DNA of 8,053 bases from a virus. Its lineage: Duplodnaviria; Heunggongvirae; Uroviricota; Caudoviricetes. The stretch lies in IMG/VR virus record IMGVR_UViG_2563366906_000012; one strand, 5' to 3'. Shown here one piece after another: positions 1 through 8,053 of this stretch. The notes under the pieces are model-generated. The model did no database searches. It saw nothing but the letters and a program-made list of their open reading frames with translations, and had not been told where the DNA came from. Numbering within the stretch: position 1 is the first letter of the stretch; each line of letters begins with the position of its first letter. Both the position numbers and the translations under genes were made by a program.

Positions 1-981
1 TTATAACGTCACTCCGCCTTTTAGTGGATTCAGAGCGACGGCATTTTGCAGATAGTCAGGCGCAAGGTGCGCATAGGCCATCGTCTGCTGAATGCTCGCA
101 TGTCCCAGAATCTGTTGCAGTGCGATTATATTGCCCCCATTCATCATGAAATGGCTTGCGAATGTATGCCGCAGGATGTGGGTTGCCTGATTGGGTGGTA
201 TATCAGGTTTCACTCTGCGTAAAATCCCGCAAAATTTCTCATAATTAACTTTGAATAATTTGGCGCTGGCCTCCTCTTTAACTTTTTTCTCCAGTTCCTC
301 AGAAATCGGCACGGTTCGCTTTTTACCGTTTTTGGTTTTCAGGAAGGTAACCCTGCAATTTGTAATCTGTGCTGGTTTTAGCGTGGCAACTTCCGTCCAT
401 CTTCCTCCAGTGCTCAGACATAAAAGCGCGACAAGTAAGTCATCACCAGCCAAAACATTTAACAGTTTTTCGATTTCTGCTTTTTCCAGGAACGTCATTT
501 CAGGGTTGGCCTCCGCCAGTGGCGGCAGTCCGTGAATTGGGTGTTGCCCGGAAAATTCATCCAATTGAATTAATTTTGTGAACATGCCGGATAATCGGTA
601 CATGTCACGGTTTATCGTTGCGGCACTGATACCATCACGTAGTCGCATGGAACGATAATCCATCAAAGCCCTTTTGCTCATCCTGCTCACTGGTATATCA
701 CCTATGCCGCTGATGGTTTTGAGTAGATGATTAAACTCTTTTGTTCCATGCTCGTGGTTTTGCCCGTGATATTTCCACCAGATGTCCAGCAACTCACTCA
801 AAGTCCGGCGGTCTGCTCGCTGGCCTCCCCATTCTTTCTGACTGGCATTGGCGATTGTGTATCGCTCAAATGCTAGTGCCTCAGCTTTTCTTTCGAATTT
901 CCTGCGGATGCGTTTTCCGTCGCGACCGCGAGGTCTAATGTCCACTTCATAGCGACCATCATCGAGCTTCTTAATTGCCAT
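1..981 (-). CDS. int: Tyrosine integrase, phage P2 Int type
   Basis: Minus-strand ORF 1..1011 (336 aa). The C-terminal half carries the tyrosine-recombinase signature (HILRHTFASHFMMNGG ... LGHASIQQTMAYAHL, with the conserved R/H residues and catalytic Tyr region). The internal Met (MAIKKLDDGRYEVDIRPRG) at 981 is preceded by a strong SD (GGAGGG, rc of 989-994, 7-nt spacer), so 981 is the likelier start than 1011. The gene reads leftward toward the window edge, as expected if attP lies beyond position 1. Confidence 0.9.
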   Translation of the reverse strand: MAIKKLDDGRYEVDIRPRGRDGKRIRRKFERKAEALAFERYTIANASQKEWGGQRADRRTLSELLDIWWKYHGQNHEHGTKEFNHLLKTISGIGDIPVSRMSKRALMDYRSMRLRDGISAATINRDMYRLSGMFTKLIQLDEFSGQHPIHGLPPLAEANPEMTFLEKAEIEKLLNVLAGDDLLVALLCLSTGGRWTEVATLKPAQITNCRVTFLKTKNGKKRTVPISEELEKKVKEEASAKLFKVNYEKFCGILRRVKPDIPPNQATHILRHTFASHFMMNGGNIIALQQILGHASIQQTMAYAHLAPDYLQNAVALNPLKGGVTL

Positions 982-1050
982 AAGAAAGCCCTCCGGCGCT
1001 GTATTCACCATCTTGGTAGCAAATGGTGAAAATGTAATCTTTATATAGAG

Positions 1051-1344
1051 TTAGCCAATCCTTTTCGCGGAGTGGTTGGACTCTGTTGACTCTGGCCCAA
1101 TGTGCGCGAGAGCCGGTGCGATTTGTCCTGCGTCCGGCGCGGTTTTATCTGTCATAAGCCATAGAGCATATTTTTGGAATGTGGGATGCATAGTGATTTT
1201 TAGCAAAGCTGTGCCACCGGGTTCAAAGTTTCCTCCTTCATATTTTTTAAGTGTGCTTAGCGGTAACTCTATGATTTCACAGAATTTTGATTGGCTTAGC
1301 CCTTCAGCCTCACGCAAGGCCTTAATCTTTTCGCTTAATTTCAT
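1051..1344 (-). CDS. C: Immunity repressor, P2 C-like (HTH DNA-binding protein)
   Basis: 97-aa minus-strand ORF directly upstream of int in the same orientation. The N-terminus has an HTH-like segment (LSQSKFCEIIELPLSTLKKYEGG). The C-terminal segment (YALWLMTDKTAPDAGQIAPALAHIG) matches what I recall of the P2 C repressor family. Size (P2 C is about 99 aa) and position fit. Gene symbol is by analogy to P2. Confidence 0.8.
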   Translation of the reverse strand: MKLSEKIKALREAEGLSQSKFCEIIELPLSTLKKYEGGNFEPGGTALLKITMHPTFQKYALWLMTDKTAPDAGQIAPALAHIGPESTESNHSAKRIG

Positions 1345-1465
1345 TTGACATGGTGCCTATATAGGGACTAAATTCCCTCAAAACTGGAACCTATATAGGT
1401 TCCATTGATTTGAGAATAAACCAGCGTCTAAACGGTTTTGAGTGGTTTAGAAAGGGCTGGATCCT
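1345..1465. promoter_or_regulatory. Lysis/lysogeny switch region: candidate early promoter Pe (-35 TTGACA 1345-1350, 18-nt spacer, -10 TAAATT 1369-1374, rightward) with two operator-like palindromes
   Basis: The intergenic region lies between the divergently oriented C and cox genes. The core CCTATATAGG occurs twice (1356-1365 and 1390-1399); the second sits inside a perfect 18-bp palindrome GGAACCTATATAGGTTCC (1386-1403). The first overlaps the spacer of the candidate promoter and the second sits just downstream of the predicted transcription start, which is the arrangement expected for repressor operators. Promoter hexamers are by-eye matches only; the leftward Pc promoter could not be placed confidently. 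Confidence 0.5.
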
Positions 1466-1753
1466 ATGAGGGTACCATATATGGACGCTGAAAATTATGT
1501 GATTCAGTATCCGCTTGATGCGGTTCATGTGGATAAATTTGCTGATTTATTAGGGAAGCCAAAGACAGCAGTCAGTGAAATGGTGAAGGCAAATAAATTA
1601 CCAATTATTGAATTGCGTGATCCTTGCAAACCGAAGGCTCGTGCCGGTGAAAAATGGGTTTTCATTCCTGAGTTTAATCGCGCTGTACGTGATGCGTTTT
1701 ATAACCGACCGGTTGAACAGCGTGATGCATGGCTTTTGTGGATGGGGTTGTGA
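1466..1753 (+). CDS. cox: Cox-like excisionase / transcriptional regulator (P2 Cox family)
   Basis: 95-aa ORF, first gene of the rightward operon opposite the repressor. The C-terminal pattern LPIIELRDP...ARAGEKWVFIPEFN...RPVEQRDAWLLWMGL resembles the P2 Cox family as I recall it. An alternative start at ATG 1481 (SD GAGGG at 1468-1472) would give 90 aa, closer to the 91 aa of P2 Cox. Confidence 0.75.
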   Translation: MRVPYMDAENYVIQYPLDAVHVDKFADLLGKPKTAVSEMVKANKLPIIELRDPCKPKARAGEKWVFIPEFNRAVRDAFYNRPVEQRDAWLLWMGL

Positions 1754-1755
1754 TT

Positions 1756-1926
1756 ATGAATGAGCCGCGTTGTATTGCTCAGTTACTGCGTAACGAAAGC
1801 CCCAGGGCGATTGACTTCACCATCACCCACGGGAAGGGACGCAAGGGAATCATTATCCGTACCAAAAAACAGAGTCCGTTAAAAAAGGCTCTGACCTTTC
1901 TGAAAAGCCGGAGGGGCTGGAAATGA
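1756..1926 (+). CDS. Small basic hypothetical protein (position of P2 orf78)
   Basis: Tracked ORF 1729..1926; the likely true start is ATG 1756, just after the cox stop (TGA 1751-1753), with a G-rich SD at 1744-1747. The 56-aa product is Lys/Arg-rich. Its stop (TGA 1924-1926) overlaps the next start (ATG 1923-1925), indicating translational coupling. No recognisable domain. Confidence 0.5.
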   Translation: MNEPRCIAQLLRNESPRAIDFTITHGKGRKGIIIRTKKQSPLKKALTFLKSRRGWK

Positions 1927-2423
1927 CAGTGATGACACTTAATCTCGTCGAAAAACAGCCAGCAGCTATGCGCCGGATAATTGGTAAGCATCTGGCCGTC
2001 CCTCGCTGGCAGGAGACATGTGATTATTATAATCAGATGATGGAACGTGAACGGCTAACGGTTTGCTTCCATGCGCAGTTAAAACAACGTCACGCAACGA
2101 TGCGTTTCGAAGAAATGAACGATGTCGAACGTGAACGGCTGGTTTGTGCAATTGATGAATTGCGTGGGGCATTCTCAAAACGCCGTCAGGTCGGTGCAAG
2201 TGAGTATGCATATATTAGTTTTTTAACAGTCAGTCAGCGGCGTACTTTATTTATGCATGCCAGATTGACAGAAAAAGAATTCAACCAGCCATACTGGCGA
2301 ATTAATGAAGAATCATGTTACTGGCGTGATGCTTTATTCCGTGCATTACGTGAATTATTCAGTCTGTTTGAGTATGCACCGACAATTCTGACATCGGTAA
2401 AACCAGAGCAATATCTGCATTAA
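1923..2423 (+). CDS. B: P2 B-like replication protein (helicase-loader-like, lagging-strand synthesis)
   Basis: 166-aa ORF, the same length as P2 B, at the P2 B position between cox/orf78 and the orf80-83 cluster. SD GGAGGGG (1910-1916) precedes ATG 1923. Assignment is from synteny, size and recalled similarity, not a search. Confidence 0.8.
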   Translation: MTVMTLNLVEKQPAAMRRIIGKHLAVPRWQETCDYYNQMMERERLTVCFHAQLKQRHATMRFEEMNDVERERLVCAIDELRGAFSKRRQVGASEYAYISFLTVSQRRTLFMHARLTEKEFNQPYWRINEESCYWRDALFRALRELFSLFEYAPTILTSVKPEQYLH

Positions 2424-2444
2424 GTAATTAACCAGAGTTTTTAA

Positions 2445-2472
2445 CGCACTTAATTGTGCGGGGCTTTTTTTT
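2445..2472 (+). terminator. Possible intrinsic terminator/attenuator between B and the next ORF
   Basis: Short hairpin CGCAC (2445-2449) / loop TTAATT / GTGCG (2456-2460), followed by GGGC and a run of 8 T (2465-2472). The stem is only 5 bp and is separated from the T-tract by 4 nt, so this is at best a weak or partial terminator. Confidence 0.3.
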
Positions 2473-2486
2473 GCCTGGAGAAAGTC

Positions 2487-2711
2487 ATGCATACAGTTTC
2501 TGAAAATCAGTGCGGTAAATACGCATTACTGCTGCAACAGGCCAGAACCGAAGCACAGGCCGACGCGGCGACGCGCTTTTCTTCTCATCTTGACGCCATG
2601 ATTCGCCACATCACAAAGGCGGAGTTATCCCGCGTGGAGATAGTCGAGCTGCTCAGTCAGGAGTCGGAAAAATTTCACAATATCGGATTGTCTCGCGGGG
2701 AGGTACTTTGA
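2487..2711 (+). CDS. Hypothetical early protein (position of P2 orf80)
   Basis: The tracked ORF starts at TTG 2454, inside the hairpin/T-run. ATG 2487 with SD GGAG (2477-2480) is the more plausible start (74 aa). The stop TGA (2709-2711) overlaps the next ATG (2711). Confidence 0.6.
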
Positions 2712-3013
2712 TGTCCTGTTCTCATTCAGTTGTATTACTGAATAACGCCTTAAAAATCGCCGTTATGAAAAATGGCGATTTGTCTCTTATTCAACTTTGT
2801 CTTGATAAAGAAAAACGCGACATAACTGAATCTGTTATCGCGATTTATCAGAATGAATTAAACCTCCTGTCTGATGTGGTCAATTTACTTGTTAAACGCG
2901 CTGTATTTCACAAGCAAATTTCCTCCGTGGATGAACTGACGAAATTAACTACAGAAATCGCCAGCTATTGCGCTGATGAATTTAAAAAACTGAACGACAA
3001 AAGGAACTGGTAA
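2711..3013 (+). CDS. Hypothetical early protein (position of P2 orf81)
   Basis: 100-aa ORF from ATG 2711 (the track begins at TTG 2708), with SD GGGAGG at 2697-2702. The stop TAA (3011-3013) overlaps the next ATG (3013-3015). No recognisable domain. Confidence 0.6.
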   Translation: MSCSHSVVLLNNALKIAVMKNGDLSLIQLCLDKEKRDITESVIAIYQNELNLLSDVVNLLVKRAVFHKQISSVDELTKLTTEIASYCADEFKKLNDKRNW

Positions 3014-3237
3014 TGCCGGACAACGTAGATTTTATTCAGGAACAACAGGCTGAATTACTGGAGCGCCAGATTAACGCGGCAAGGGTAAAACATTGCGGTG
3101 CTTCTGCGCTGGTTTGCGAAGAGTGTGACGCGCCAATACCTGCTGCCCGTCGTGCGGCTTATCCGTCAGCCACGCGTTGTGTTTCCTGTCAGGCAGTCTT
3201 TGAAGCAAAAAACAAACATTACCGGAGAACGGCATGA
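3013..3237 (+). CDS. TraR/DksA-family C4 zinc-finger protein (position of P2 orf82)
   Basis: 74-aa product with two Cys pairs, C-x2-C ... C-x2-C (VCEECDAPIPAARRAAYPSATRCVSCQ), preceded by an acidic/helical N-terminus. This is the architecture of the TraR/DksA family of RNA-polymerase secondary-channel binders. The stop overlaps the next start (ATGA at 3234-3237). Confidence 0.75.
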   Translation: MPDNVDFIQEQQAELLERQINAARVKHCGASALVCEECDAPIPAARRAAYPSATRCVSCQAVFEAKNKHYRRTA

Positions 3238-3509
3238 GTATTCGTATTGAAATTGGCGAACGTTATGTCGTTACCAGTGACAGCTTTCAGTTTATTCTCC
3301 ACGAGAAAAAGAGAGCGGAAAGCGGTAAAAACGCCGGTCAGGAATGGCTGTCGGTGGTTGGTTATTACCCGAAATTAAGCCAGCTCGTTTCCGGCCTGAT
3401 GCATCACGATATTCTGACCGGAAGCGCAAAGTCTTTTGCTGATTTAAACGCGCAGGTTGAGCAACTCAGCAAGCGTTGTTCAGAGGCTTTTGGCTCATAT
3501 GGCCGTTAA
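3234..3509 (+). CDS. Hypothetical early protein (position of P2 orf83)
   Basis: 91-aa ORF, translationally coupled upstream, whose 3-prime end overlaps the gene A start by about 11 nt. No recognisable domain. Confidence 0.6.
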   Translation: MSIRIEIGERYVVTSDSFQFILHEKKRAESGKNAGQEWLSVVGYYPKLSQLVSGLMHHDILTGSAKSFADLNAQVEQLSKRCSEAFGSYGR

Positions 3510-5778
3510 AGCCTCCGGGCGTTTTGTCCCTCCGTCAGCATTTGCCGCAGGCACCGGTAAGGCGTTTACCGGTGCTTATGCATGGAACGCGCCACGCGAG
3601 GCCGTCGGGCGCGAAAGACCCCTTACACGTGACGAGATGCGTCAGGTGCAAGGTGTTTTATCCACGATTAACCGCCTGCCTTACTTTTTGCGCTCGCTGT
3701 TTACTTCACGCTATGACTACATCCGGCGCAATAAAAGCCCGGTGCACGGGTTTTATTTCCTCACATCCACTTTTCAGCGTCGTTTATGGCCGCGCATTGA
3801 GCGCGTTAATCAGCGCCATGAAATGAACACCAACGCGTCGTTGCTGTTTCTGGCAGAGCGTGACCACTATGCGCGCCTGCCGGGGATGAATGACAAGGAG
3901 CTGAAAAAATTTGCCGCCCGTATCTCATCGCAGCTTTTCATGATGTATGAGGAACTCAGCGATGCCTGGGTGGATGCGCATGGCGAGAAAGAATCGCTGT
4001 TTACGGATGAGGCGCAGGCTCACCTGTATGGTCATGTTGCTGGCGCTGCACGAGCTTTCAATATTTCCCCTCTCTACTGGAAAAAATACCGTAAAGGGCA
4101 GATGACCACGAGGCAGGCATATTCTGCCATTACCCGCCTGTTTAACGATGAGTGGTGGACTCATCAGCTTAAAGGCCAGCGTATGCGCTGGCATGAGGCG
4201 TTACTGATTGCTGTCGGGGAGGTCAATAAAGACCGTTCTCCTTATGCCAGTAAACATGCCATTCGTGATGTGCGTGCGCGCCGCCAGGCAAATCTGGAAT
4301 TTCTTAAATCGTGTGACCTTGAAAACAGGGAAACTGGCGAGCGCATCGACCTTATCAGTAAGGTGATGGGCAGTATTTCTAATCCAGAAATTCGCCGGAT
4401 GGAGCTGATGAACACCATTGCCGGTATTGAGCGTTACGCCGCCGCAGAGGGTGATGTGGGGATGTTTATCACGCTGACCGCGCCGTCAAAGTATCACCCG
4501 ACACGTCAGGTCGGAAAAGGCGAAAGTAAAACCGTTCAGCTTAATCACGGCTGGAACGATGAGGCATTTAATCCAAAGGATGCGCAGCGTTATCTCTGCC
4601 GTATCTGGAGCCTGATGCGCACGGCATTCAAGGATAATGATTTACAGGTCTACGGTTTGCGTGTCGTCGAGCCACACCACGACGGAACGCCGCACTGGCA
4701 TATGATGCTTTTTTGTAATCCACGCCAGCGCAACCAGATTATCGAAATCATGCGTCGCTATGCGCTCAAAGAGGATGGCGACGAAAGAGGAGCCGCGCGA
4801 AACCGTTTTCAGGCAAAACACCTTAACCGGGGCGGTGCTGCGGGATATATCGCGAAATACATTTCAAAAAACATCGACGGCTATGCACTGGATGGTCAGC
4901 TCGATAACGATACCGGCAGACCGCTGAAAGACACAGCGGCGGCTGTTACCGCATGGGCGTCAACGTGGCGCATCCCGCAATTTAAAACGGTTGGCCTGCC
5001 GACAATGGGGGCTTACCGTGAACTACGCAAATTGCCTCGCGGCGTCAGTATTGCTGATGAGTTTGACGAACGCGTCGAGGCTGCTCGCGCTGCTGCAGAC
5101 AGTGGTGATTTTGCGTTGTATATCAGCGCGCAGGGTGGGGCAAATGTCCCGCGCGATTGTCAGACTGTCAGGGTTGCCCGTAGCCCGTCGGATGACGTTA
5201 ACGAGTACGAGGAAGAAGTCGAGAGAGTGGTCGGCATTTACGCGCCGCATCTCGGCGCGCGTCATATTCATATCACCAGAACGACGGACTGGCGCATTGT
5301 GCCGAAAGTGCCGGTCGTTGAGCCTTTGACTTTAAAAAGCGGCATCGCCGCGCCTCGGAGTCCTGTCAATAACTGTGGAAAGCTCACCGGTGGTGATACT
5401 TCGTTACCGGCTCCCACACCTTCTGAGCACGCCGCAGCAGTGCTTAATCTGGTTGATGACGGTGTTATTGAATGGAATGACCCGGAGGTCGTGAGGGCGC
5501 TCAGGGGCGCATTAAAACAAGGTCTGAGAAGACCAAACCGTCAGCAAAGAAACGGAAGCCCGTTAAAACAGCATGAAATGGCACCATCGGCCAGACTGAC
5601 CCGGTCAGAACGAATGCAAATTACCCGTATCCGCGTTGACCTTGCTCAGAACGGTATCAGGCCGCAGCGATGGGAGCTTGAGGCGCTGGCGCGTGGAGCA
5701 ATTGTAAATTACGACGGGAAAAAATTCACGTATCCGGTCGCTGATGAGTGGCGGGGATTCTCAGCAGTAATGGAGTGA
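3499..5778 (+). CDS. A: Rolling-circle replication initiation endonuclease, P2 gene A / HUH Rep superfamily
   Basis: The tracked ORF is 3457..5778. The likely start is ATG 3499 (MAVKASGRF), or TTG 3490, giving about 759-762 aa against 761 aa for P2 A. It carries an HUH metal-binding motif (HWH, codons 4693-4701, in EPHHDGTPHWHMMLF) and a twin-tyrosine motif YIAKY (Tyr codons 4846-4848 and 4858-4860, in AGYIAKYISKN), like the phiX174 gpA active site. Confidence 0.9.
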   Translation: MAVKASGRFVPPSAFAAGTGKAFTGAYAWNAPREAVGRERPLTRDEMRQVQGVLSTINRLPYFLRSLFTSRYDYIRRNKSPVHGFYFLTSTFQRRLWPRIERVNQRHEMNTNASLLFLAERDHYARLPGMNDKELKKFAARISSQLFMMYEELSDAWVDAHGEKESLFTDEAQAHLYGHVAGAARAFNISPLYWKKYRKGQMTTRQAYSAITRLFNDEWWTHQLKGQRMRWHEALLIAVGEVNKDRSPYASKHAIRDVRARRQANLEFLKSCDLENRETGERIDLISKVMGSISNPEIRRMELMNTIAGIERYAAAEGDVGMFITLTAPSKYHPTRQVGKGESKTVQLNHGWNDEAFNPKDAQRYLCRIWSLMRTAFKDNDLQVYGLRVVEPHHDGTPHWHMMLFCNPRQRNQIIEIMRRYALKEDGDERGAARNRFQAKHLNRGGAAGYIAKYISKNIDGYALDGQLDNDTGRPLKDTAAAVTAWASTWRIPQFKTVGLPTMGAYRELRKLPRGVSIADEFDERVEAARAAADSGDFALYISAQGGANVPRDCQTVRVARSPSDDVNEYEEEVERVVGIYAPHLGARHIHITRTTDWRIVPKVPVVEPLTLKSGIAAPRSPVNNCGKLTGGDTSLPAPTPSEHAAAVLNLVDDGVIEWNDPEVVRALRGALKQGLRRPNRQQRNGSPLKQHEMAPSARLTRSERMQITRIRVDLAQNGIRPQRWELEALARGAIVNYDGKKFTYPVADEWRGFSAVME
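5350..5375 (+). other. Candidate replication origin / A-protein nick site inside gene A
   Basis: In P2 the origin lies inside the A coding sequence. The stretch GCGCCTCGGAGTCCTGTCAATAACTG at about 5350-5375 resembles my recollection of the P2 ori nick region. This is a recollection-based placement, not verified. Confidence 0.3.
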
Positions 5779-6043
5779 ACGTCGCCAGTTGCGAAAATTA
5801 TTTACAGGGGGCAGCGTTAAGCATCTAAAGATCTTGTTCTATGATTAGAATGTTTCCTCGTTGCACTCTCGTATAGTTATTTAATGGGAAGATGTACTCT
5901 ATATGTTGTGTTTTGGTGATAAATGAAGCCAAAGGAAGGAGATTTTGCTTGATTGATGGGCGCTCTTTGCTATACACCTTGTATTGAGAAGGAGAAGTAA
6001 TCAAGGATTAAGCTGGCTTTTGTCAAAAATCTGAAAAGCTTTT

Positions 6044-6073
6044 TTGACTGAATACGATAGCGAGTTGTACTAT
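6044..6073 (+). promoter_or_regulatory. Candidate sigma70 promoter for the cargo cassette (-35 TTGACT 6044-6049, 18-nt spacer, -10 TACTAT 6068-6073)
   Basis: By-eye hexamer match about 35 nt upstream of the first cargo ATG (6108). It sits in an AT-rich spacer and is immediately preceded by nested palindromes (GTCAAAAA ... TTTTTGAC around 6022-6049; AAAAGCTTTT at about 6033-6042). Confidence 0.4.
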
Positions 6074-6107
6074 TTGCGCCCTCAAAAGTAACCGGCGGCT
6101 GGGTAAA

Positions 6108-6488
6108 ATGGGGAAGCAAGGCAAAGGCAAAGGCAAAGGCAACAAAAATCAGGTTAAGGTTACGTGGGCTCAGGCGTGGCGGGATGTAATGATAAGAGCC
6201 ATGTCTAATGGTCAGTTGATACCTATTACCATCAGTATTATTTTAATGATTGCTGCATGGAGGTTACCAAAAACTGACTTGTCCAATTTAGCCTTCTCTA
6301 TTGTTGATGGCTTTAAGGAGCATTCCTTGGTTGGTTGGGCTATCTCGGTAATAGTGGGTTTGGCTTGGTCTGCACATGCGCGAATCATGAGGCGCTGTTT
6401 TAGTTCCGAGGCACAGAGAATCGGTAACGAGAAAACAAAGTATCAACAAAGACAGACCACTCAAGCCTTGGGTACAAGTGATAAATAG
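6108..6488 (+). CDS. Hypothetical small membrane protein with Gly-Lys repeat N-terminus (cargo gene 1)
   Basis: 126-aa ORF. The N-terminus MGKQGKGKGKGNKNQ is encoded by the in-frame hexanucleotide repeat GGCAAA. There are two hydrophobic helices (about residues 36-52, LIPITISIILMIAAW, and 73-90, LVGWAISVIVGLAWSA) and a basic/polar C-terminal tail. AT-rich relative to the phage backbone. No recognisable family. Confidence 0.6.
   Translation: MGKQGKGKGKGNKNQVKVTWAQAWRDVMIRAMSNGQLIPITISIILMIAAWRLPKTDLSNLAFSIVDGFKEHSLVGWAISVIVGLAWSAHARIMRRCFSSEAQRIGNEKTKYQQRQTTQALGTSDK
6114..6143 (+). repeat. In-frame hexanucleotide tandem repeat (GGCAAA x3 perfect, with flanking degenerate copies) encoding (GK)n
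   Basis: Direct reading: aag caa ggc aaa ggc aaa ggc aaa ggc aac. The perfect copies span 6120-6137. Confidence 0.8.
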
Positions 6489-6508
6489 TTGTTTATTTAG
6501 GAGTTATT

Positions 6509-7066
6509 ATGCTGACAGTGCTGTTTTATGTGCTGTTGGGTTTAGGCGCAGCACACTTCATTTACGAGCGAATCATTTTGCCGTCCATCCGACTTCATTA
6601 TAGAAACCAATTGTTTGCGCTTCGTGATGTCGCTAGGAGGAAAATCATTGATGGAGGTTCCGATACTTCCATGCAAGCGGCAACACTTGTGCATGACTCA
6701 TTGAATAACGCTATCAATAGATTGCATTTACTCACGTTGCCAAACAAATTTCGTGCTCAAAAGCGTATGGCAGAAAACCATGCAATAAGGCAGAAAATTC
6801 GGCGTGAGATAGATGTTTTCAAACGCTGTGATGATAGAGAAGTTGTTGATGTACTGTTTAAATCCGGTCGGATACTTGAAAATGTACTGTTATTCAATAG
6901 CTTAATGTTATTGCTTTACATGTTTCCATTTGTCCTTGCTGTATGGTTCTGTGTTAGGGTCATAAAGACAGCAAGTAGTTTAGTACAGTGGGTCAAAGGA
7001 AGAGATTTAGAGGAAGCTATAATGCTGCTTCCTGATACTCAGGTTGAAAAGGTTGTATACGCATAA
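6509..7066 (+). CDS. Hypothetical membrane protein, N- and C-terminal hydrophobic helices flanking a charged central domain (cargo gene 2)
   Basis: 185-aa ORF with a strong SD (AGGAG 6499-6503, 5-nt spacer). Hydrophobic segments at about residues 2-24 (LTVLFYVLLGLGAAHFIY) and 126-152 (VLLFNSLMLLLYMFPFVLAVWFCVRVI), with a roughly 100-residue Arg/Lys/Asp-rich region between. It starts 20 nt after cargo gene 1, so the two are probably an operon. No recognisable family. Confidence 0.65.
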   Translation: MLTVLFYVLLGLGAAHFIYERIILPSIRLHYRNQLFALRDVARRKIIDGGSDTSMQAATLVHDSLNNAINRLHLLTLPNKFRAQKRMAENHAIRQKIRREIDVFKRCDDREVVDVLFKSGRILENVLLFNSLMLLLYMFPFVLAVWFCVRVIKTASSLVQWVKGRDLEEAIMLLPDTQVEKVVYA

Positions 7067-7134
7067 AAATCACCCCTTAGGGGGTAATGCCGATCAGTTA
7101 AGGATCAGTTGACCGATCCAGTGGCTGTGTAAGA

Positions 7135-7168
7135 ATCCGGAAACGCTCACTCGTTTCCGGATTTTTTT
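7135..7168 (+). terminator. Strong intrinsic-terminator-like hairpin inside the IS left end, immediately before the transposase ATG
   Basis: Perfect 11-bp stem ATCCGGAAACG (7135-7145) / CGTTTCCGGAT (7152-7162), 6-nt loop, followed by TTTTTT (7163-7168) and then ATG at 7169. Confidence 0.6.
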
Positions 7169-8053
7169 ATGCACATTGGACAGGCCCTTGATTTGGTATC
7201 CCGTTACGATTCTCTGCGTAACCCACTGACTTCTCTGGGGGATTACCTCGACCCCGAACTCATCTCTCGTTGCCTTGCCGAATCAGGTACTGTAACGCTA
7301 CACAAGCGCCGTCTTCCCCTCGAAATGATGGTCTGGTGTATTGTTGGCATGGCGCTTGAGCGTAAAGAACCTCTTCACCAGATTGTGAATCGCCTGGACA
7401 TCATGCTGCCGGGCAATCGCCCCTTCGTTGCCCCCAGTGCCGTTATTCAGGCCCGCCAGCGCCTGGGAAGTGAGGCTGTCCGCCGCGTGTTCACGAAAAC
7501 AGCGCAGCTCTGGCATAACGCCACGCCGCATCCGCAATGGTGCGGCCTGACCCTGCTGGCCATCGATGGTGTGTTCTGGCGCACACCGGATACACCAGAG
7601 AACGATGCAGCCTTCCCCCGCCAGACACATGCCGGGAACCCGGCGCTCTACCCGCAGGTCAAAATGGTCTGCCAGATGGAACTGACCAGCCATCTGCTGA
7701 CGGCTGCAGCCTTCGGCACGATGAAGAACAGCGAAAATGAGCTTGCTGAGCAACTTATAGAACAAACCGGCGATAACACTCTGACGTTAATGGACAAAGG
7801 TTATTACTCACTGGGACTGTTAAATGCCTGGAGCCTGGCGGGAGAACACCGCCACTGGATGATCCCTCTCAGAAAGGGAGCGCAATATGAAGAGATCAGA
7901 AAACTGGGTAAAGGCGATCATCTGGTGAAGCTGAAAACCAGCCCGCAGGCACGAAAAAAGTGGCCGGGACTGGGAAATGAGGTGACAGCCCGCCTGCTGA
8001 CCGTGACGCGCAAAGGAAAAGTCTGCCATCTGCTGACGTCGATGACGGACGCC
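7169..8053 (+). CDS. insG: IS4 transposase (DDE family), N-terminal 295 codons; truncated by the window end
   Basis: Hand translation from ATG 7169 gives an uninterrupted reading frame to the window end ([86 protein letters not shown] ... [15 protein letters not shown] ... [16 protein letters not shown] ...), which I recognise as IS4 InsG. It is absent from the supplied ORF track because there is no stop within the window. Confidence 0.9.

Follow-up and report, generated by a model that had tools for sequence, protein, structure and literature searches.

The window analysed here, an 8,053-nt stretch of a P2-like prophage, carries a coding microsatellite whose unit number changes recurrently and in frame on identical sequence backgrounds. 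The tract lies near the 5' end of a gene for a small membrane protein, where each unit encodes one Gly-Lys dipeptide of a cationic N-terminal tail. The defence system to which this protein belongs is already known; the new finding is the recurrent coding-microsatellite polymorphism of its 2TM tail. While the gain is modest, since the system itself has been described before, E. coli is generally poor in coding microsatellites, and the tract represents a rare recurrently mutating example in this species. The length differences are probably a near-neutral product of replication slippage in a disordered cytoplasmic tail that tolerates changes in length.

The repeat-bearing gene and its prophage context

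Based on a Pfam scan, the window was assigned to the left arm of a P2-like prophage. Besides the integrase and gpA genes listed below, this arm encodes an HTH (C) repressor, Cox, a TraR/DksA-type zinc-finger protein and two DUF5405 proteins, and in identical loci the portal and terminase genes follow downstream. The features needed for the following analysis are:

1-1011, minus strand: integrase gene (Pfam scan)
3499..5778, plus strand: gpA replication endonuclease gene, left border of the P2 defence hotspot (Pfam PF05840, E 1e-123; RefSeq annotation)
6044..6073, plus strand: candidate sigma-70-like promoter TTGACT-18-TACTAT, located some 35 nt before the ATG (consensus match; the number of promoter-like sites in the region is not above shuffle expectation)
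6108..6488, plus strand: gene for the 2TM membrane protein, 126 aa (PADLOC, PHROG, identity to P2_AC1, hydropathy)
6509..7066, plus strand: gene for the 1TM partner protein, 185 aa, following the 2TM gene after a 20-nt gap (PADLOC)
7065..7085, plus strand: 5' portion of an intrinsic terminator hairpin that follows the 1TM gene (hairpin detected; intact form AAAAATCACCCCTTAGGGGGTGATTTTTTT)
7086..8053, plus strand: IS4, represented by its left end and the larger part of its transposase gene and continuing past the end of the window (matches to IS4 copies annotated in over 2600 E. coli genomes)

The product of 6108-6488 matched the PADLOC profile '2TM-TIR' (PDLC02978) with an E-value of 6.9e-58, residues 1-126 aligning with positions 1-124 of the 124-position profile, and also matched PHROG 33772. 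Its hydrophobic segments were placed by hydropathy at approximately residues 31-51 and 73-91, and its C-terminal tail is basic and conserved. The product of 6509-7066 matched '1TM-TIR' (PDLC02977) over its full length (E 2.7e-75), and the 2TM and 1TM genes were kept together in all homologous loci examined. Neither protein had a match in Pfam or NCBIfam, and PHROGs assigned them only to families of unknown function. The region 5790-7085 of the window is 100% identical to Escherichia phage P2_AC1, and the 126-aa protein is an exact match to CAH0786489.1 of that phage (protein-cluster entry). Judged by these sequence matches, the product termed 'cargo protein 1' in an earlier note on this DNA is the 2TM protein of Rst_2TM_1TM_TIR, the defence system previously described for P2_AC1.

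According to Rousset et al. 2022 (PMC9122126), the three genes of the AC1 hotspot, two for transmembrane proteins and one for a TIR protein, protect E. coli C from lambda, LF82_P8 and P2; the authors suggest that the TIR protein may produce a nucleotide signal activating the membrane proteins. The anti-phage activity reported there was shown for AC1, whose 2TM-1TM sequence equals that of the window and which carries the 4-unit allele of the repeat described below. Both loci carry this system in the hotspot bordered by gpA and the portal gene; what sets the window apart is an IS4 element in the terminator that lies between 1TM and TIR. In 39 loci an intact, perfect terminator hairpin (AAAAATCACCCCTTAGGGGGTGATTTTTTT) follows the 1TM gene, and in intact loci the TIR gene starts 240 nt after it. 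In the window, the hairpin is interrupted by IS4, so that the element comes to lie between the 2TM-1TM pair and the TIR gene. The window itself ends within IS4, and the remainder of the system was seen in a second locus, L012 (GCA_000350985.1, KB732428.1), which is identical to positions 108-8053 of the window (7946 nt). There, IS4 is flanked by a target duplication of approximately 13 bp (L012 6960-8520), and the TIR gene downstream of it is intact and matches PDLC03016 ('TIR-TM') with E 2.7e-118. The locus thus presents a 2TM protein, an adjacent 1TM protein, a TIR protein and the P2 hotspot position, as expected of Rst_2TM_1TM_TIR.

In the literature, we found no later mechanistic work on Rst_2TM_1TM_TIR and no publication dealing with the tail or its repeat. 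The system was named only by Rousset et al. 2022 and by two surveys, and the available text of these sources does not mention the polymorphism of the 2TM tail.

The protein named '1TM' showed two strongly hydrophobic segments by hydropathy, at residues 1-19 and approximately 125-153. It may therefore have two membrane passages, separated by a domain of about 100 residues.

A hexanucleotide tract in the translated N-terminal tail

The 2TM gene starts with ATG at 6108-6110, followed by GGG AAG CAA, three GGCAAA units (6120-6137) and GGC AAC AAA AAT. The earlier note had described tandem GGCAAA units at 6120-6137; they are present as stated, and the perfect tract is slightly longer. Tandem Repeats Finder (TRF) delimited a period-6 tract of 25 nt at 6118-6142, with 4.2 copies, 100% matches and the consensus AAGGCA. 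The 24-nt repeat pattern, allowing up to three mismatches, occurred once in the window and in 0 of 200 dinucleotide-preserving shuffles. No further repeats were found in 5700-7200, and the repeat region had no match in Rfam. Translation of the open reading frame 6108-6488 yields MGKQGKGKGKGNKNQVKVTW... (126 aa), with the N-terminus MGKQGKGKGKGNKNQ, which follows the pattern MGKQ(GK)3GNKNQ. Two features were delimited within it:

6108..6158, plus strand: coding region of the N-terminal tail, MGKQGKGKGKGNKNQVK (translation; 17 aa with 6 Lys and no acidic residue, predicted to be disordered and cytoplasmic)
6118..6142, plus strand: hexanucleotide microsatellite (AAGGCA)4.2 (TRF; codon register GGC-AAA three times, then GGC-AAC)

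The ATG at 6108 is the first ATG, GTG or TTG past the upstream in-frame stop and is the start used by RefSeq and in the AC1 record. Among 24 homologs from Escherichia, Hafnia, Yersinia, Cronobacter, Plesiomonas and Pectobacterium, nearly all open with MGK. When the 15 codons just upstream of Met28 were compared with four homologs, substitutions at codon positions 1/2/3 numbered 1/1/4, 1/0/5, 5/3/10 and 4/7/10. Because MGK is conserved and the codons upstream of Met28 show this third-position bias, we conclude that the tail is translated from ATG 6108. A start downstream of the repeat, at Met28 or Met32, had been named in the earlier note as a finding that would speak against a repeat-encoded tail; the conserved MGK, the cationic tail and the third-position bias all place the start upstream of the repeat. 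Shine-Dalgarno duplex energies were weak for all four candidates (CTG6099, ATG6108, ATG6189 and ATG6201; -4.4 to -5.3 kcal/mol) and gave no basis for choosing among them.

Directly before the ATG, positions 6099-6107 read CTG GGT AAA (L-G-K) and extend the Gly-Lys pattern; this stretch is conserved in homologs at 83% identity. Some GenBank annotations begin at CTG 6099, which gives rise to 125-aa and 127-aa versions of the protein.

Alleles differ by whole repeat units

The locus was detected in 14 of 5426 complete E. coli genomes, two with the length of the window and 12 shorter by 6 nt. An alignment of three loci showed that these 6 nt correspond to a single whole AAGGCA unit, with no other difference around it. 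At the protein level, the cluster formed at 90% identity contained 15 distinct sequences, which make up the series MGKQ(GK)nGNKNQ with n = 1-5, corresponding to 2-6 units. Outside (GK)n, the proteins are identical or differ by one residue. The alleles were distributed as follows:

n=1, 122 aa: 5 contigs, plus 4 annotated from the upstream CTG
n=2, 124 aa: 336 contigs, plus 135 annotated from CTG, which probably overlap the 336
n=3, 126 aa: 183 contigs; allele of the window and of AC1
n=4, 128 aa: 111 contigs
n=5, 130 aa: 17 contigs

This results in contig totals of roughly 9, 470, 183, 111 and 17 for n = 1-5, in which GenBank and RefSeq annotation of the same genomes may be double-counted. One further cluster member of 132 aa (P0035) was rejected as an artefact, as its N-terminus is adaptor-derived.

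At the nucleotide level, 47 tract-bearing loci carried 2, 3, 4, 5 or 6 perfect AAGGCA units. Since these loci were sampled by allele and the contig counts are biased by clonal sampling, the allele frequencies are unusable for a neutrality test. The 15-member cluster contained no frameshifted allele, and all five alleles (5/5) are in frame. The earlier note had suggested that the unit number could vary between alleles and had proposed to align homologous loci and count the units. Such variation was confirmed, with 2, 3, 4, 5 and 6 units giving proteins of 122-130 aa, so the repeat number is not invariant. Its further argument, that a 6-nt unit keeps the frame and alters only the length of the tail, holds as well, because the differences in the DNA are whole AAGGCA units. 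A profile search of genome contigs with the protein alignment returned nothing, and plasmids gave no matches.

These natural alleles of the AC1 cassette, with 1-5 Gly-Lys units, offer a ready allelic series for probing the role of the 2TM tail. The tract could additionally act as a fine-scale typing marker for AC1-like prophages.

Recurrence, rate and age of the length changes

We next compared the unit number with the divergence of the flanking sequence. The immediate flank of 1250 nt contained 9 variable sites in 47 loci, and its commonest haplotype was combined with 3, 4, 5 and 6 units. A longer flank of 3520 nt, comprising gpA and the remainder of the two genes, showed 232 SNP columns and 0 indels in 44 loci, with backbone lineages approximately 40-60 SNPs apart. 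Over this length, five groups of loci with zero flank differences carried {2,3}, {4,5,6}, {4,5,6}, {2,4} and {5,6} units, respectively. As the unit number differs within five groups of identical flanks, at least seven independent length changes have to be assumed. In the absence of any flank indel, the tract is the only length-variable site at the locus, and it changes faster than the single sites nearby. Recurrence on identical backgrounds is what slippage would predict, which favours the view of the repeat as slippage-prone put forward in the earlier note.

The point-mutation rate of E. coli is about 2e-10 per site per generation. Setting the length changes against 3.5 kb free of SNPs implies a rough tract rate in the order of at least 1e-6 per generation.

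E. coli homologs at 83% identity start with ATGGGGAAGGCGAAAGGCAAC or ATGGGGAAGGGAAAAAGCAAC (MGKAKGN, MGKGKSN) and are devoid of the tandem repeat. From the sequences compared, the microsatellite appears to be young and confined to the AC1-like clade.

Composition, topology and structure of the tail

To place the tail in the context of the protein family, we performed a profile search against 1.84 billion representative proteins, which yielded 576 family members at E <= 1e-3. Tail statistics were calculated for 126 full-length representatives of 50%-identity clusters, taking as tail the segment before the core VTWAQAWRDVM.... Among these representatives, the tail has a median length of 14 aa (10th-90th percentile 9-19) and a median of 4 K/R and 0 D/E; 93% of the tails carry a net positive charge, and their sequence is not conserved. 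The tail would thus be conserved as a compositional feature, cationic and free of acidic residues, with sequence and length left free. By the same measure, the allele tails of 14-22 aa and 4-8 Lys extend from the typical range up to its upper end. The longer alleles, with 20-22 aa and 7-8 Lys, lie at or past the upper end of the family range and may not be neutral.

In the window protein, the net charge is +6 for the N-tail, 0 for the inter-helix loop and +5 for the C-tail. Given this charge pattern, the positive-inside rule predicts an N-in/C-in topology with a cytoplasmic tail, a prediction derived from hydropathy and charge. An AF2 model based on 25 sequences assigned residues 1-15 a pLDDT below 50 and showed coil up to residue 19; the model was poor overall (mean pLDDT 59.8, pTM 0.28) and lends weak support to a disordered tail.

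Near-neutral slippage as the probable explanation

Taken together, we consider it probable that the alleles represent a near-neutral slippage polymorphism in a cationic tail that is disordered, faces the cytoplasm and accommodates differences in length. In such a scenario, replication slippage would gain or lose whole AAGGCA units, each adding or removing one Gly-Lys dipeptide at the head of a small two-helix inner-membrane protein. The disordered and strongly cationic tail would reside on the cytoplasmic side, where it would set the N-in orientation of the first helix in line with the positive-inside rule and probably touch anionic lipid head groups. If what matters for this job is composition and neither a particular sequence nor a particular length, changes of 2-10 residues would be tolerated, and length changes would pile up as near-neutral polymorphism with no role as a switch. 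A caveat to near-neutrality is that a defence gene under diversifying or tuning selection would likewise be expected to change repeatedly.

Such tuning forms the core of the main alternative, which we regard as unlikely: the number of Gly-Lys units might act as an adaptive rheostat of defence, with slippage supplying heritable variants for selection by phages. Possible targets include the dependence of 2TM/1TM on membrane potential or their trigger threshold, the interaction with the TIR protein and the evasion of a phage inhibitor. At least seven independent changes on identical flanks, in a gene of a validated defence system, would fit this idea, as would the addition of one positive charge beside the first transmembrane helix per unit.

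Two precedents can be cited. In lambda, an extra N-terminal positive charge next to the first transmembrane helix distinguishes S107 from S105 and controls helix insertion and timing in a manner dependent on the proton motive force (PMC6116005). As a small phage-encoded membrane protein, S offers a possible model for the effect of an additional Lys in 2TM; it differs in that there is no sequence relationship, that S107 arises from a dual-start motif and not from a repeat, and that the 2TM protein is predicted to be N-in for all alleles. In the HsdS subunits of EcoR124I and EcoR124II, two versus three copies of a 12-bp repeat encoding TAEL change the recognition gap from N6 to N7 and thereby alter specificity (PMC3874165). 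There too, the copy number of an in-frame tandem repeat varies in a protein of a defence system, but the HsdS repeat is located in a structured coiled-coil spacer, whereas the 2TM repeat is located in a tail tentatively predicted to be disordered.

Against a rheostat stand the free drift of tail length and sequence across the family, which indicates weak constraint, the shortness of the tract together with the lack of an ON/OFF outcome, and the typical family tail length of the commonest allele (3 units). A more specific version, which seems to us decidedly unlikely, proposes, by analogy with lambda S107/S105, that the Gly-Lys units shift the membrane-potential threshold at which 2TM/1TM change state upon phage DNA entry, so that variants would trade sensitivity against self-toxicity or against the response to different phages. 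If a rheostat did operate, it would amount to graded, in-frame contingency variation of a defence gene carried by an E. coli prophage.

It appears improbable that the repeat acts at the level of nucleic acid, with the unit number affecting the 2TM-1TM operon through translation initiation or mRNA stability. The tract does begin 10 nt past the ATG and is A-rich, with Shine-Dalgarno-like AAGG motifs and AAA codons for Lys, and the weakness of every candidate Shine-Dalgarno site means that the downstream sequence could count. However, predicted mRNA folding gave a steady unpaired probability of 0.50-0.57 at positions -15 to +12 for 0-8 units, Rfam provided no match, and homologs without the repeat retain a cationic protein tail written in different codons.

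Simple-sequence-repeat phase variation is typical of contingency loci, for instance in surface and restriction-modification genes of Haemophilus and Neisseria. Like these loci, the tract is a tandem repeat prone to slippage, sits at the 5' end of its gene and varies in unit number between close relatives. This likeness could point to classical phase variation, in which unit changes would frequently turn the gene or operon ON and OFF, an explanation that we judge very improbable. In contrast to contingency loci, the 6-nt unit of 2TM preserves the frame in every allele and occurs in only 2-6 copies, and the repeat is found in the translated region and not in a promoter spacer. Variable repeats among close relatives were found, but ON/OFF switching by frameshift or promoter spacing was not. 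In addition, the rate of the 2TM tract, as estimated from length changes and flank SNPs, is probably orders of magnitude lower. The phase-variation-like role that the earlier note had marked as speculative finds no support, since there is no frame-breaking allele, the tract is short, and the predicted accessibility of the start is the same for 0-8 units.

Finally, it is scarcely credible that the length differences reflect sequencing or assembly artefacts, or that a downstream start leaves the tract in an untranslated leader: although the N-terminus of P0035 is adaptor-derived and the Shine-Dalgarno analysis does not separate the starts, tracts of 12-36 nt fit inside single reads, the 3-unit and 4-unit alleles both occur in finished genomes, alleles recur in hundreds of independent assemblies, and the conserved MGK and codon-periodic substitutions contradict a downstream start.

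A 2TM-1TM pair without a TIR gene

In another E. coli lineage as well as in Hafnia and Cronobacter, the P2 hotspot carries a 2TM-1TM pair but no TIR gene, and the portal gene follows directly (L048 4001-4946, L050 5001-5957 and L053 5001-5965). A distant member of the 2TM family is likewise followed by a 1TM homolog (L056 157-1130). Because the pair is found without TIR and because a terminator separates it from the TIR gene in AC1-type loci, it may represent an autonomous module. The definition of the system by three genes may consequently need revisiting, and for those studying its mechanism this lead is probably more useful than the repeat.

Variation around the cassette

The terminator site that is interrupted in the window also carries IS4 in L033 and L041, in the opposite orientation. 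The site after the 1TM gene thus looks like a hotspot for IS4.

Downstream of the TIR gene (L001 8715-9919; L012 10423-11340), the hotspot contains an open reading frame of 305 aa assigned to PHROG 21267, a family of unknown function, and another of 94 aa, which is present in some loci and absent from others. Neither matched Pfam or PADLOC, and both could be further cargo.

In L028 (3740-8151), a 5-unit cassette is situated outside a P2 backbone and adjoins a gene with a SIR2_2 domain. This context suggests that the cassette may move between defence islands.
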